From positions 135 to 64,134 of the forward strand of contig JAUXAP010000003.1 of assembly GCA_030619865.1 (NCBI GenBank): DNA of 64,000 nucleotides, read 5' to 3'. The number at the start of each line of letters is the position of its first letter. The stretch's first letter is position 1. The DNA is from Dehalococcoidia bacterium. Lineage in GTDB: Bacteria > Chloroflexota > Dehalococcoidia > Dehalococcoidales > JAUXAP01. The translations under genes were made by a program, and so were the position numbers. The notes under the pieces are model-generated. The model was given only the letters and a program-made list of their open reading frames with translations, was not told where the DNA came from and did not search any database. Of this stretch, positions 38,653 through 44,806 are shown piece by piece.

Positions 38653-39642
38653 ATGAAAATTCTGGGTATCGAGACCTCTTGTGATGAAACAGCAGCGGCG
38701 GTGGTGAAGGATGGGCTTAGAATCCTATCCAACCAGATTGCCTCACAGGTAGAAATCCATGCTCGCTATGGAGGGATTGTTCCTGAGGTCGCCTCTAGAC
38801 AGCACATTCTAGCTATCATCCCTATTATTGAGCAGGCGATGACCCAGGCTAAGGCTACATGGAGTGAGCTGGATGGCATTGCCGTCACTATTGGACCAGG
38901 TCTGGCTGGCTCACTACTGGTTGGAGTAAACGTAGCTAAGGCCATCGCCTCAGCTCATGGGTTACCTATTACCGGAGTTAACCACCTTGAGGGTCATATC
39001 TACGCTAACTGGCTGATTGGTCAAAATCCTGAGCTTATTCCCCGCTTTCCTTCGATATGTCTCATTGTTTCCGGAGGGCATAGTGATTTGGTGTTAATGA
39101 GAGGGCACGGGGATTATGTGTTATTGGGTCGGACACGGGATGATGCTGCCGGTGAAGCCTTTGATAAAGCAGCCAGAATACTGGGATTAGGCTATCCCGG
39201 CGGTCCCGCCATTGAGCAGACGGCAAGAAATGGCACTGCTTCTCTCAAGCTACCTCGTGCCTGGCTTAAAGGGACTAACGACTTTAGCTTCAGTGGTGTC
39301 AAGACAGCCCTGCTCCGTTTGGTGGAGGAGGATAAGGTCTCAAGCAGAGCTGATGCTGCTGCCAGCTTTCAGGAAGCAGTGGTTGATGTCCTGGTTACCA
39401 AAACGGTAACTGTAACCAAGGAGCACCGGGTAAAGCAGATTTTACTGGCCGGTGGAGTGGCATCAAATAAGCTGCTTCGAAGTCGGCTGGTGGAAAATTC
39501 ACCTATCCCGGTTCTGGTTCCTGAACCTATACTATGCACCGATAATGCCGCTATGATTGCTGCCTGCAGCTATTATCACTTCCAAGCCGGTAAGATAGAC
39601 AGTTTAGATTTAGATGTCATTCCCAGCCTTAAGCTGGCTTAA
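38653..39642 (+). CDS. tsaD: tRNA N6-adenosine threonylcarbamoyltransferase
   Basis: 329 aa. [17 protein letters not shown] is a Kae1/TsaD N-terminus. Confidence 0.95.
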
Positions 39643-40986
39643 GGGGCAGTAGTGGCATCTACCTTGAGTGCACAGGGTATTATAGATATAAATTAGCCCT
39701 TGTTGCCTCCGGGCTGAGTTGACCAAACTGGTGCTTAGCTCAAGCTGATACCTCATATGCCTTTCCACAGAGTTTACTGCCAGCTTAGGGTAGTGACAGT
39801 AAAGGTCAAAGGCCTTCTTCTTAAGTCTTGGCCGGGAGGCGAGTTGGCTCCAGGCAAATATAAAGGGCAGAAGCACATTCACTATAATATCAGCCGCCCG
39901 CCTATCACCTAGAAGGGTTGGGGTTCTTACCCTGCTACCTAAGCAAAAATCAAAGTGGTTTGCCCAATAACCATTGGTGGTAACTAATAACCCCTCTTCT
40001 AATCTATGGTGACCTTGACTGACCGGCACCTCCTTTACCATGTTGACTAATGCTTCAAACATCCCCTTCTCCTTATAACGGAGTATAAGATAACTCATTG
40101 CTACTATACGCCGAACCGGGAAGTTACTTGGTCTAACCTTAAATAGATGCCAGTCATTCCGGGACATCACCTCAGTGTGGCGAGAAACAGCCCATAACCT
40201 CTCTAACCTGTCTATCCACCTACCGTCTAATTTGTTTTCCCGGAGTCCATCATGGCATTGTGAGGGAAGTAGCCCAGCGGTACCCAATAGTAGAGCCTGT
40301 TGTTGGGCAAGACACTCTTCGTCTGATATTCTACCTCGGGTCATCGACTCCAGGATCTGAAGTGGTAGTCGGCGGGCTAGCTCTAGACAGGGAAGCTTAT
40401 TCTTAGAGTAACCCAAGGCACCCATTATCCCCCTATAAAGGGATTGGCTCGCCCCTATTTCAGCTAAATCCACTTGAAACCGAGAAACCTTAGCCAAAAA
40501 CCGCTCTTCCCCAGCGCTGTCTAGAAATCCAGCTATAGTACTCGCAGTTAGGCGCTGAGCCACTTTGAGGCAAGGCATATTCAAGGTAACGGAGGGATAT
40601 ACCTCGTCAGACTGCTGGCTAACCGGGTTTTCTATGTATTTATGTAAAGCAAGAATAGGAATATTCTTTCCATTCTGAAGAATAGTAGCTGCCCCAGTAT
40701 CATGCCACATTACCACATGCAGGATTACCCGGTTATAGGCAGGGTCCAGGTGGTGTCGGTGAACTCGCCAACTACTGGACTTAACATGAAGTTCTATATC
40801 TCCCATTATTAACCCTCGGCTGGTAGCAATAACTGCATCACAGAAATCAGCCCCCCGGTCATCATTGAGCCTCCCCGGATAGATTACCTTTACCGGCTCA
40901 CCACCCTCAGTGACCAGCTCTGACCTGCTTAGTAATTGCTGCTGCCAGAGCTTAACAATTTGTTTCTCGGAGAGATTACTGGTCAC
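39610..40986 (-). CDS. DUF2851-family protein
   Basis: 458 aa with a GTG start after AGGTGGTGAG. N-terminal pattern [14 protein letters not shown]...[31 protein letters not shown]. Confidence 0.7.
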
Positions 40987-41031
40987 CTCACCACCTTTAG
41001 GTTGCTACAGATAACCCTGTACCCTTTGTTT

Positions 41032-41047
41032 TACACGATATCGTGTA
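41032..41047. promoter_or_regulatory. operator-like palindrome TACACG-ATAT-CGTGTA
   Basis: Perfect 16-bp palindrome, 46 nt upstream of the DUF2851 start. Confidence 0.5.
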
Positions 41048-41098
41048 TCACCAAGCTAAAAAAAGCGATTTTTGCCTAAACCCAATTAATTAGCCCCT

Positions 41099-41617
41099 TT
41101 ACCCTAACTGTTTATCAAGCTCTTGTTTAAATACCTGGCAAGCTGGTTGATCAAACAAGGCAAAGACTACCCGGTTAAGTCCTGTTTCCTCGGCTGAGTA
41201 CTGGCGTACCTCGCTAATCATTATCCTAGCACACTCATCCAGAGGAAAGCCACCAACACCAGTGCCCAGAGCCGGGAAAGCAAGGCTCTTGATACCAAGC
41301 TCGTCACCTCTAAGCAAGCTATTTCTCGTTGCCTGCCTAATTTTTTCAGCATCAGTCTTAAGGTCTTGCCCCATCACCGCGGCATGTATAATATACTTTG
41401 TTTCTAGCTTACCGGCTCCAGTTACTACCGCTTCCCCGACAGGAATAGGCCCCTTTTTAACCGCCTCATCCTCTATTTCCTTACCCCCGACTCTCTTCAG
41501 GGCGCCAGCTACCCCACCACCCATCCATAATCGATTATTAGCTGCGTTTACCAAGGCATCAAGTTCAAGCTGAGTAATGCCTCCCTGGTAGACCTCAATT
41601 TTAATCATTGCCTTCAC
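41099..41617 (-). CDS. macro-domain protein (ADP-ribose binding/hydrolase)
   Basis: 172 aa. LVNAANNRLWMGGGVAGAL...HAAV...PALGTGVGG. Confidence 0.85.
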   Translation of the reverse strand: MKAMIKIEVYQGGITQLELDALVNAANNRLWMGGGVAGALKRVGGKEIEDEAVKKGPIPVGEAVVTGAGKLETKYIIHAAVMGQDLKTDAEKIRQATRNSLLRGDELGIKSLAFPALGTGVGGFPLDECARIMISEVRQYSAEETGLNRVVFALFDQPACQVFKQELDKQLG

Positions 41618-41630
41618 CTAGGCTATGCTT

Positions 41631-41654
41631 ATTATACACGGAACCGTGTATAAT
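41631..41654. promoter_or_regulatory. operator-like palindrome ATTATACACGG-AA-CCGTGTATAAT (core TACACG-GAAC-CGTGTA) overlapping a TATAAT box
   Basis: 11-bp perfect arms. Lies between the HTH stop and the macro start. On the minus strand TATAAT sits ~14 nt before the macro ATG region, which has SD AGGTGAAGG. Confidence 0.5.
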
Positions 41655-41655
41655 G

Positions 41656-41907
41656 TCAAGGCCTTTCGGTTTCTGAGGAAGTGGCTTCATACTTAAATTT
41701 GGCGCGTTCAGCAATAATAGACAGAAGGGTAGATGAGGCACCGCGGGGTTTATACATTCCTAGTTCCCATTCGCTTATTGTCTGCTGGCGTGTGCCCAGT
41801 CTATCTGCCAGCTCACGCTGGGTTAAACCTAGATGGCGCCTTAAGGCACGGATATACTCACTATCCCATTGCGGTCGGTCCACTTTGTACTGGCTACTCA
41901 TAGCCAA
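41656..41907 (-). CDS. XRE-family helix-turn-helix transcriptional regulator
   Basis: 83 aa. LGLTQRELADRLGTRQQTISEWELG. TTG 41907 or ATG 41901 as start. Confidence 0.8.
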   Translation of the reverse strand: MAMSSQYKVDRPQWDSEYIRALRRHLGLTQRELADRLGTRQQTISEWELGMYKPRGASSTLLSIIAERAKFKYEATSSETERP

Positions 41908-41911
41908 ATAC

Positions 41912-41927
41912 TACACGATTTAGTGTA
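41912..41927. promoter_or_regulatory. operator-like imperfect palindrome TACACG-ATTT-AGTGTA
   Basis: Same half-site and spacing as the other two, with one arm mismatch. Immediately upstream of the HTH gene and adjacent to a TAGTAT -10-like box. Confidence 0.45.
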
Positions 41928-42013
41928 AACCGTCAACAACCTCAATCTTTGGCCCGGATGAGACTCATAAATGGGCATTATGATGAAGGCAGAGGCATAC
42001 TTTAGCCAAAAAC

Positions 42014-43336: not shown

Positions 43337-44806
43337 TCACATCAGTTCCGTCTGCTTGAGGCTCCCCCTAGCTGCCCGCGGTGAATACTGGTTGGCGGCT
43401 TCAACCAGCAGAGCCAGGCTCATCAGGAAATCGTCATGCCCCTGTGACGGGTCAACATAGAAATTCATCGTCTGGCTGGGACGGTACTGGCTCTTCGCCT
43501 TCTCCATCTCAAACCAGAACTCTTGATACTCGGTTGAGCCATCCCCGGCATACATTTTCAACCGGCCTGAGTTAATGCTGGCTAACAGGCTAAAGCCTAA
43601 CTCCGACTTTGACCGCTGAGTGAAGGTGAAAGGAATAACCCGTGAGCCTAATGACTGCCTGAGGAACGAGCTCACCGGCTGACCAACTCCGGTAGCATCA
43701 ACCACTACCCTACGGCAGCGCCATACGTTCCTGAGGATGTCAACTAATTGAGGGTAGAGGTCGGTATGCTTCCTGCCTGTCCACCAGTAATGCTCAACAA
43801 CCTTAATCTTAGACTGCTTTTGAACATCATCACTAATAGTAAAGTCTAACTCGCCAATAGTAACCACAGTAGAGTCCTGACGTGGTTTAAGGGCTCTTAA
43901 ATGGGCTCCTTCCTCTTCCTCAGCCTCCCCAGCCAGGTCAATACCGGCGACATAGACCTTACTGCGGTCAGGTTGATGCTTCCTTACATGTTCGCCGCTT
44001 AGCTGAGCCCTCTGCTGAGGTGATAGGTATCCCCCACCGCCATGGATGGGTAAAAGTCGGTACTGAGAAAGGAATAGGGGATGGTTCTCACCAAGGCGCT
44101 CCCTCTCCGCTTCAACATAGGCTAAATAGTCGGGATTATACTTGGCCACTTCCTGCCAATCATAGCGGAAGTGGCGTTTGATACCATCCCTTCTCTCCAG
44201 TTCGCAATTAGTCTGCTTTATCTCCTCAAGCAGAGTAGCATCATCCCAGGTAGTGCCATAGTGAACGGTAGTAACATTGGTCGTTGCCCCCATAGGCTTG
44301 AATTCTTTGGTATACTTTTCCTTGCTGACATCCTGCGATTCATCTATTTCCAGGAGAATATGAGCGGTGTTACCCACCACATTAGCTGACTCATCAGCCG
44401 ATAGGAATATTGCCCTGGCATTCCCCAGCCTAATGATATAACCCAGCTCAGCCACCCAGATACCAGCAAAGCCAGCATCATTCAGCCTGTCCTTCAACCG
44501 TATCATAGAGATAACCGTCTGCGGTTTAAAGGTAGGCGCACACTTAACCAGGTTCTGTGGCTCAGCCATATAAAGGGTCAAAAGCAAGAGCTCAAGTTGA
44601 GCTGACAGTTCATTCTTACCCCCCTGCCTAGCCATTTCAACAGAAAAGGTGAGACCTTTTCTTCCAAAAATGCTGTCCAAGATAGCCAGCGCCACTTCTC
44701 GCTGGTAGGGCCGTAGCTTACGCAAGGTAAGCTGGCTAGGCGATTTATTTGCTGACGGCGGCCCCGATGCTGATTCCGAGGGGGAGGGCGACATCTCTAA
44801 GGACAT
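43337..44806 (-). CDS. phage terminase large subunit-like protein
   Basis: 489 aa. Walker A-like ARQGGKNE, Walker B-like ILLEIDES, and a C-terminal nuclease-like VVVDATGVG...GHDDFLMSLAL. Confidence 0.7.
   Translation of the reverse strand: MSLEMSPSPSESASGPPSANKSPSQLTLRKLRPYQREVALAILDSIFGRKGLTFSVEMARQGGKNELSAQLELLLLTLYMAEPQNLVKCAPTFKPQTVISMIRLKDRLNDAGFAGIWVAELGYIIRLGNARAIFLSADESANVVGNTAHILLEIDESQDVSKEKYTKEFKPMGATTNVTTVHYGTTWDDATLLEEIKQTNCELERRDGIKRHFRYDWQEVAKYNPDYLAYVEAERERLGENHPLFLSQYRLLPIHGGGGYLSPQQRAQLSGEHVRKHQPDRSKVYVAGIDLAGEAEEEEGAHLRALKPRQDSTVVTIGELDFTISDDVQKQSKIKVVEHYWWTGRKHTDLYPQLVDILRNVWRCRRVVVDATGVGQPVSSFLRQSLGSRVIPFTFTQRSKSELGFSLLASINSGRLKMYAGDGSTEYQEFWFEMEKAKSQYRPSQTMNFYVDPSQGHDDFLMSLALLVEAANQYSPRAARGSLKQTELM

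Follow-up and report, generated by a model that had tools for sequence, protein, structure and literature searches.

What connects a small helix-turn-helix (HTH) protein, a macro-domain protein and a member of the DUF2851 family whose genes lie side by side in a bacterial chromosome, each behind the same palindrome? The question is raised by a 64,000-nucleotide (nt) stretch of contig JAUXAP010000003.1 (hereafter the window), which belongs to a metagenome-assembled genome of a Dehalococcoidia bacterium (Chloroflexota). Based on the promoter architecture of this locus and on its comparison with related loci across the class, we propose, with a probability of about 0.8, that the HTH protein is an autoregulated XRE-family repressor which would act by promoter occlusion and govern a locus-restricted regulon with DUF2851 as its fixed output; its binding and repression are what we infer from sequence comparison.

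Operators and promoters in the window

The locus comprises the following features, in the order in which the genes would be transcribed.

41931-41936, minus strand: -35 hexamer TTGACG of the HTH promoter P1 (promoter scan and sequence reading; relatives have TTGACA or TTGACG there)
41912-41927: operator O1, TACACGATTTAGTGTA (minus strand TACACTAAATCGTGTA), one mismatch to the perfect dyad
41908-41913, minus strand: -10 hexamer TAGTAT of P1 (promoter scan and sequence reading)
41656-41901, minus strand: XRE-family HTH gene, 81 aa, ATG 41901 (Pfam HTH_3)
41654-41659, minus strand: -35 hexamer TTGACA of the output promoter P2, including the HTH stop codon (promoter scan and sequence reading)
41635-41650: operator O2, perfect dyad TACACGGAACCGTGTA (minus strand TACACGGTTCCGTGTA), no mismatches, inside perfect 11-bp arms at 41631-41654
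41631-41636, minus strand: -10 hexamer TATAAT of P2 (promoter scan)
41099-41608, minus strand: macro-domain gene, 169 aa, ATG 41608, in the slot between O2 and O3 (Pfam Macro, PF01661)
41048-41098, minus strand: spacer between macro and DUF2851 genes with a T-run, corresponding to the terminator hairpin of relatives and degenerate here
41032-41047: operator O3, perfect dyad TACACGATATCGTGTA, no mismatches, 45 nt upstream of the DUF2851 GTG
39610-40986, minus strand: DUF2851 gene, 458 aa, GTG 40986, the first start of the open reading frame (ORF) (Pfam)

The initial annotation had read these genes as an XRE-type HTH, a macro and a DUF2851 gene, and Pfam confirms all three, on the minus strand: HTH_3 (PF01381) matches residues 19-56 with 44.3 bits against a gathering cut-off of 23 (E 1.8e-11), Macro scores 120.3 bits against 22 (E 5.6e-35), and DUF2851 (PF11013) scores 240.8 bits against 25 (E 3.2e-71) over model positions 1-368 of 375. 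The starts ATG 41901 and ATG 41608 were chosen from the sequence and from orthologue alignment. The three palindromes that had been picked out by eye were recovered at the same positions by sequence reading and motif search, and the remark that the motif is confined to the intergenic regions of the trio also held. Within the source genome the operator scan covered the 64-kb window, where the dyad TACACG-N4-CGTGTA, allowing at most one mismatch, occurs three times against an expectation of 0.01; none of 100 shuffles reached three, and every gene of the trio has one site upstream of it. Two mismatches admit only two further matches (46279 and 58105), both within long ORFs, where 0.82 would be expected; these fit chance.

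The TATAAT and TAGTAT boxes, noted earlier as overlapped by one palindrome and adjoining another, proved to be the -10 elements of promoter-like minus-strand sites (TTGACA-17-TATAAT and TTGACG-17-TAGTAT). Read on the coding strand, P1 is TTGACG-gtt-TACACTAAATCGTG-TAGTAT, with a 17-nt spacer and 9 of 12 consensus positions, and P2 is TTGACA-tta-TACACGGTTCCGTG-TATAAT, with a spacer of the same length and all 12 sigma-70 consensus positions. The geometry of the two is identical: a -35 hexamer, three nucleotides, the operator, and a -10 hexamer whose first two bases are the operator's last TA. O1 thus occupies the P1 spacer and shares its final TA with the -10, so that the dyad overlaps the regulator's own promoter, as in autoregulated XRE-type systems. 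Since the dyad fills the spacer and overlaps the -10, a bound repressor would exclude RNA polymerase.

The two promoters are also tightly knit to the HTH gene. Its ATG at 41901 is the seventh nucleotide after the -10 of P1 and is without a Shine-Dalgarno sequence; with a start so near the -10, the HTH mRNA is probably leaderless, a likeness to the lambda cI mRNA made from P_RM, which is leaderless. The other end of the gene is in P2, whose -35 hexamer (T-TGA-CA) contains the HTH stop codon TGA (41658-41656). O3 is different: its flanks in the window are weak hexamers (gcttgg ... TAAAAC) that do not amount to a sigma-70 promoter P3, and the O3 class across relatives has a conserved context of its own, with a TTGATA -35 overlapping the left operator edge. 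The promoter and terminator scan found no terminator between the macro and DUF2851 genes of the window, where the predicted fold is no better than in shuffled sequence (z ~0); transcription from P2 thus probably runs on into DUF2851. A scan of the locus against Rfam returned no credible RNA family.

Conservation across Dehalococcoidia

The comparison covered 80 metagenomic loci, 80 loci from species-representative genomes and several single contexts, with 36-87% DUF2851 identity. The DUF2851 searches, two by profile and one covering the top 150 representatives, led to the same clade or, where an organism was named, to Chloroflexota/Dehalococcoidales, and the genome scan for DUF2851 loci retained Dehalococcoidia only. 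Sixty of the species-level loci had enough upstream sequence to be informative.

The dyad is concentrated at this locus throughout. The species-level set (80 loci, 599 kb) holds 148 sites against approximately 1.2 in shuffles, of which 146 lie at most 2.4 kb upstream of DUF2851, two lie just past its stop and none lies elsewhere. When 161 related loci are taken together, there are 273 sites, and the hexamer at the fixed 3-nt offset upstream is TTGACA in 144 cases, TTGACG in 22 and TTGACT in 11. As the overlapping -10, most sites have TATAAT, TAAAAT or TAGAAT. An HTH gene stands upstream in 52 of the 60 informative loci and at least one site in 57 of 60. Both occur together in 52, the HTH gene never occurs without sites, and neither is found in three; the distant locus L174 also has neither HTH gene nor sites.

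The fine structure is retained as well. In two relatives, at 87% and 70% DUF2851 identity, all three operators are present in the same geometry amid otherwise divergent intergenic DNA, and the two have different upstream neighbours (homoserine dehydrogenase, hom, versus groES). The HTH gene and its operators stay upstream of DUF2851 orthologues at 45-87% identity, and loci as remote in DUF2851 as L175 and L177 still have the arrangement. The O1 variant with a TACACT left half is itself conserved (89 O1 contexts), and the HTH start codon follows O1 by 10 nt in 61 of 77 distinct HTH genes. The fusion of the HTH stop codon with the -35 of the output promoter recurs in 60 of 74 genes, and the position of O2 directly after the HTH gene is conserved in 112 O2 contexts. 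The segment LGTRQQTISEWE, in the region of the recognition helix, is invariant among 77 distinct HTH orthologues. As phylogenetic-footprint evidence, this joint conservation of operators, promoter placement and HTH gene amid diverging surroundings argues strongly that the adjacent HTH protein would bind the dyad as its operator, and that the arrangement is under selection. It also supports, over 80 species, the single regulon that the initial annotation had proposed, with all three genes under the HTH protein.

The locus is syntenic, in the order hom ... HTH-DUF2851-tsaD-CNNM-DUF2344-tilS. Together with the 45-87% identity across 80 species-level genomes, this synteny suggests that DUF2851 is inherited vertically and is not patchy in the manner of a mobile defence gene.

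An exchangeable slot between O2 and O3

Of the 60 species-level loci, only 9 have the macro gene between O2 and O3. In 26, DUF2851 comes immediately after the HTH gene, and in 20 there is another insert. In these 26, O2 either drives DUF2851 directly or is followed only by a terminator-like hairpin and then O3. Among all loci collected, 17 carry behind an O2-type promoter, in place of the macro gene, a gene for a 476-aa ADP-forming acyl-CoA-synthetase-like protein (CoA_binding_2 / Succ_CoA_lig / Ligase_CoA_2); other cargo consists of DUF72 proteins, of which some loci have only decayed 71-aa remnants. The macro gene is thus, on this comparison, optional cargo, and the constant members of the putative regulon are the HTH and DUF2851 genes.

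The protein encoded in the window's slot matches TTHA0132 in the PDB with E 9.4e-40, and YmdB and MacroD1/2 at about 1e-21, and it reached no NCBIfam equivalog cut-off. By sequence it is a compact stand-alone TTHA0132/MacroD-like domain. Adjacency of macro and DUF2851 genes recurs sporadically down to ~36% DUF2851 identity (L176, L124, L151, L163, L122 and L152), and a loose association between the two may exist. The L176 pair has an O2-type operator before the macro gene and no adjacent HTH gene; some 3-4 kb downstream of it, a Peptidase_M78 (ImmA/IrrE-like) gene accompanies a second HTH_3 gene (L176:8057-9210, minus strand), and the two could be a repressor/protease pair.

Further observations concern the slot itself. 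The 71-aa ORFs (L052:2718-2960, L057:2720-2990, L084:2718-2960 and L096:3718-3960) join a DUF72 N-terminal VKVGCCGF...QQTF to a C-terminal NITMYDDALRF and look like internally deleted DUF72 cargo, intact versions of which are found in L161 (237 aa) and L107 (198 aa). In macro-less loci the O2 consensus promoter is followed within ~20-40 nt by a hairpin, GCGGUUU...AAACCGC with a U-run, and then by O3 (for instance L039:1338-1430, L117:690-780, L045:2530-2625 and L094:3740-3835); this is apparently an empty promoter-terminator slot, or the source of a very short transcript. The O2-O3 spacing in 26 distinct loci falls into groups of 66-68, 76-80 and 97-99 nt that differ by about one turn of the helix; periods of 9-12 score alike, however, so that the phasing does not single out 10.5 nt, and the loci are related by descent.

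Methyltransferase genes and viral contigs with the same or a similar promoter

In six loci, restriction-modification (R-M) cassettes are inserted between DUF2851 and tsaD, at the following coordinates.

L016:2700-3648: R-M cassette
L017:1430-2935: R-M cassette
L024:2540-4823: R-M cassette
L077:1720-2900: R-M cassette
L097:5400-6474: R-M cassette
L101:5300-7694: R-M cassette

Their methyltransferases belong to three families: two kinds of N6_N4_Mtase, one of them paired with a His-Me/EndoVII nuclease, and an Eco57I-like N6_Mtase. Every such methyltransferase gene is preceded by a cccTTGACAattTACACG-N4-CGTGTATAAT promoter (TTGACA-N3-operator-TATAAT), which in five of the six loci lies within ~90 nt of near-identical upstream sequence. 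It looks as though different R-M modules were exchanged behind a single regulated promoter.

Nine IMG/VR viral contigs also carry TTGACA-N3-TACACG-N4-CGTGTA-NNNT (L165:1527-1555, L169:4999-5027 and seven others; L166-L173), and no homologue of the HTH, macro or DUF2851 proteins was found on these nine. The sites in L165 and L169 (TTGACAAATTACACGATTTCGTGTAA) closely resemble the R-M promoter variant. The viral sites may reflect other repressors with the same half-site. A phage origin of the module was considered and is not supported: these contigs are without homologues, and viral relatives of the HTH protein match its generic core only (≤53%).

The regulator among known XRE-type systems

The closest natural relatives of the HTH protein with solved structures are the 434 repressor (E 5e-4) and P22 C2. 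Weak matches were obtained to MqsA_antitoxin (4e-6), HipB and HigA-2, to the PDB entry "Regulatory protein C" (4yba, E 5e-3), which is no better than the phage repressors, and to the PADLOC Control_protein family (1.6e-4), the last amid many generic HTH matches. Judged by these scores, all similarities are at the generic XRE level.

Like the Cro/CI proteins of phages 434, P22 and lambda, the regulator has a small HTH_3 domain, dyad operators overlapping sigma-70 promoters and predicted negative autoregulation. Unlike them, the module is not in a prophage and has neither a divergent lytic promoter nor a tripartite operator; its HTH protein lacks a C-terminal oligomerisation or peptidase domain, and the genes under its presumed control are chromosomal and conserved across a bacterial class. 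The controller (C) proteins C.AhdI, C.Esp1396I and C.PvuII resemble it as XRE-type HTH proteins of ~80 aa with palindromic operators in promoters, and the weak match to 4yba and the occurrence of the same operator on R-M methyltransferase promoters in six relatives add to this likeness. However, the HTH gene stands outside any R-M operon, R-M genes are missing from the locus in the window and in most relatives, and where such genes are present they lie downstream of DUF2851, separate from the HTH gene. Moreover, a single dyad precedes the regulator's own gene instead of a tandem C-box pair, and the constant target is DUF2851 and no restriction enzyme. C proteins, whose genes usually lie upstream of the endonuclease gene and are transcribed together with it, typically control the C-R operon, whereas here the operator is on the methyltransferase promoter. 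With antitoxins of type II toxin-antitoxin (TA) systems (MqsA, HigA, HipB) the regulator shares weak matches and an upstream gene apparently autoregulated through a promoter-overlapping palindrome, but its partner, unlike the small toxin of a tight bicistron, is a conserved 458-aa protein with its own promoter, inheritance appears vertical and syntenic, and the HTH protein has no zinc-ribbon or toxin-binding domain.

DarTG systems, in which the macro antitoxin DarG reverses the ADP-ribosylation of DNA, resemble the locus of the window through their macro domain, which has a weak DarG match here (NCBIfam E 8.5e-8, PADLOC 5.7e-10). The macro protein nevertheless reaches only 31.8 bits against the DarG cut-off of 250; it is a stand-alone protein of 169 aa without the C-terminal DarT-binding domain, and no DarT is present. 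Membership in the DarTG, C-protein or type II TA groups was therefore rejected, on the DarG score and missing DarT, the position of the HTH gene outside R-M units and the absence of a tight small-toxin bicistron, respectively. As far as sequence allows, the module would work mechanistically like the textbook Cro/CI and C-protein circuits, and by membership its regulator is of the XRE family.

The DUF2851 protein

DUF2851 is a large family (6,574 clusters at 50% identity, E <= 1e-3) on which the searchable literature holds essentially nothing; we also found nothing relevant on DUF72 or on Dehalococcoidia in combination with XRE and operator, and no record matched the exact sequence of the DUF2851 protein from the window. 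Among 65 diverse members, W14, G38, D47, G62, E65, W73, H76, H78, R162, N196, W279, N288, P290, R293, N370, Q429 and G430 are invariant, as are the C-terminal cysteines C439-x4-C444-x2-C447, while H67 and C139 are nearly so; E7 is also listed as invariant, with D47, E65 and H67, in the N-terminal domain. The full-length model has a mean predicted local distance difference test score (pLDDT) of 79 and a predicted template-modelling score (pTM) of 0.81, and compared with the PDB it has no significant neighbour, the matches being helical noise (best E 0.086). A DUF2851 profile found nothing among PDB sequences, weak Pfam matches over the 65 members were not recurrent, and no family was matched in PADLOC-DB 2.0 (E <= 1) or PHROG.

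The initial annotation had suggested a nuclease-like N-terminus. The topology and the residues fit this suggestion: the model of residues 1-118 (pLDDT 91.7) has the alpha-beta-beta-beta-alpha-beta order of the restriction-endonuclease fold, with the invariant D47 at the start of beta2 and the invariant E65-x-H67 on beta3, K69 being conserved in the close clade only. D47/E65-x-H67 would be a non-canonical (D/E)xK motif. The fold matches are all sub-significant. Those in the PDB include Bax1 (rank 1, E 0.38, TM-score 0.31) and SfsA (rank 5, E 1.1), which are nucleases of the restriction-endonuclease fold; in BFVD the top match is a RecB-family nuclease (E 0.028, probability 0.84, TM-score 0.42), with further PD-(D/E)xK and Mrr-like entries at lower ranks. 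As modelled, a nuclease-like N-terminus is therefore suggestive only. The modelled order of elements in this domain is also that of the RecB/Cas4/AddB "iron staple" nucleases, and the four cysteines of DUF2851 are likewise arranged 1+3 (C139 ... C439-x4-C444-x2-C447). Unlike in these enzymes, the lysine of (D/E)xK is replaced by His or shifted, a helical domain of ~300 residues without structural neighbour lies between the cysteines, and no match is significant; the iron-staple Cys pattern of Cas4 and AddB is CX2CX5C, and the spacing in DUF2851 differs. Our tentative reading, to which we would give somewhat less than even odds, is that DUF2851 is a metal-dependent enzyme whose N-terminal domain is PD-(D/E)xK-like and which has a metal site of four cysteines.

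The 3' end of the gene overlaps the convergent tsaD by 33 nt (39610-39642), and by ~39 nt in L003 and L175. Strong transcription of derepressed DUF2851 could run antisense into tsaD.

A model for the locus and its alternatives

In the circuit that we propose, the 81-aa XRE-type HTH protein would be a dimeric repressor that binds the 16-bp dyad TACACG-N4-CGTGTA and, when bound, occludes the near-consensus sigma-70 promoters against RNA polymerase. Through O1, a conserved imperfect dyad, it would negatively autoregulate its own gene; through O2, a perfect dyad, it would control the output promoter, which forms one physical unit with the HTH gene. O3 would be a second operator just upstream of DUF2851, associated with a weak promoter or acting as a roadblock. 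P2 would transcribe the macro gene of the window, and probably DUF2851 too. The module would be vertically inherited across Dehalococcoidia, with DUF2851 as its constant target and the O2-O3 slot as its variable part.

Several observations weigh against this picture. Five species-level loci have operators and no HTH gene within 2.4 kb; in these, the dyad may be bound either in trans by a regulator encoded at another place or by a different factor. The -35 and -10 hexamers at O3 in the window are poor in either geometry. The HTH protein has no sensor domain, so that induction would need proteolysis, an anti-repressor or titration. As the scan of the source genome covered 64 kb, further members of the regulon may lie beyond the window. 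Finally, the nuclease assignment of DUF2851 comes from sub-significant fold matches only.

The five loci would be readily accommodated if the dyads were read by some other, unlinked regulator, or were a lineage-specific element of promoter spacers, the adjacent HTH gene being incidental. L176, with its operator before the macro gene and no HTH gene nearby, and the similar promoter-operator strings in the nine viral contigs fit this idea too. We consider it very improbable: most HTH genes start at the fixed distance of 10 nt from O1 and have their stop codon within the O2 promoter, every locus with the HTH gene has sites, the two are lost jointly (in L174 and in 3 of 60 species-level loci), and the dyad is absent from the remaining flanks in 599 kb. 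The initial annotation had instead placed DUF2851 in ADP-ribose metabolism, that is, with the macro protein in one pathway of nucleic-acid ADP-ribosylation (a DarTG-like reversal or defence) co-regulated by the HTH protein. The shared operator of the two genes in the window and their recurrent adjacency in scattered lineages speak for such a pathway, but DUF2851 and the HTH gene persist where the macro gene is missing. The macro gene being facultative, and its slot elsewhere empty or filled with unrelated acyl-CoA-synthetase-like or DUF72 genes, the main support for an ADP-ribose role of DUF2851 is removed. Nor does the DarG-type reading of the macro protein survive, given its score, its closer similarity to TTHA0132/MacroD-like domains and the absence of a DarT-like neighbour. 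We regard a common ADP-ribose pathway as unlikely.

Only slightly more credible, and still improbable in our judgement, is a TA-like or restriction-controller-like module in which the HTH protein would be an antitoxin or C protein and DUF2851 a silenced toxic nuclease serving defence. An autoregulated regulator gene upstream of its effector is what such a module would have; the resemblances of the HTH protein to MqsA/HigA/HipB antitoxins and R-M controllers, the PD-(D/E)xK/RecB-like top matches of the DUF2851 N-terminal domain and the same promoter-operator on three different R-M methyltransferase genes point the same way. The HTH resemblances are all generic, however, and DUF2851 is a protein of 458 aa whose gene often has its own promoter and may be parted from the HTH gene by a terminator and cargo; its syntenic locus and sequence identity suggest vertical inheritance, and it has no PADLOC or PHROG match. 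The earlier suggestion of a stress or defence module fares accordingly: the operator on the R-M methyltransferase genes fits it, whereas the vertical, syntenic DUF2851 gene, without a PADLOC match, does not. The autoregulated repressor with DUF2851 as fixed output thus remains our preferred reading. It could be extended further, into a scheme that we think doubtful as a whole: the HTH gene and its fused output promoter would form a class-wide "regulated expression slot" (autoregulated repressor, consensus promoter with the repressor's stop codon in its -35, cargo, terminator) into which unrelated genes were repeatedly inserted, swapped or left to decay (macro, acyl-CoA-synthetase-like, DUF72 and, behind another copy of the promoter, the three kinds of R-M methyltransferase), DUF2851 would be a repressed metal-cluster PD-(D/E)xK nuclease or hydrolase, and the whole would be an inducible response to DNA or foreign DNA.

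A neighbouring gene

At 43337-44806 (minus strand), the window encodes a 489-aa protein with a weak match to the C-terminal nuclease of terminase large subunits (Terminase_6C, E 3.5e-4, below cut-off; phrog_5909, E 2e-6). L001 and L175 have a gene of corresponding length (489-490 aa) at the same position beside homoserine dehydrogenase. The gene seems to be a conserved one of the chromosome and not part of an obvious prophage.

Meaning for Dehalococcoidia and the DUF2851 family

The specific putative regulon delineated here, which we found described nowhere, is new and is conserved across the sampled Dehalococcoidia genomes; equally new is the compact unit in which a predicted repressor gene is fused to its output promoter, with an exchangeable cargo slot behind it. 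For a group of organisms with few tools, the locus provides a defined promoter-operator pair of consensus strength, and its relatives show R-M methyltransferase genes placed, as it appears, under a resident chromosomal repressor. The comparison also corrects an inference from guilt by association, in that the macro gene is one of several interchangeable passengers. For the large and unstudied DUF2851 family, this is a first regulatory and functional context and an experimental handle: removal of the HTH gene or mutation of the dyad would be expected to derepress DUF2851, whose phenotype and substrates could then be sought.

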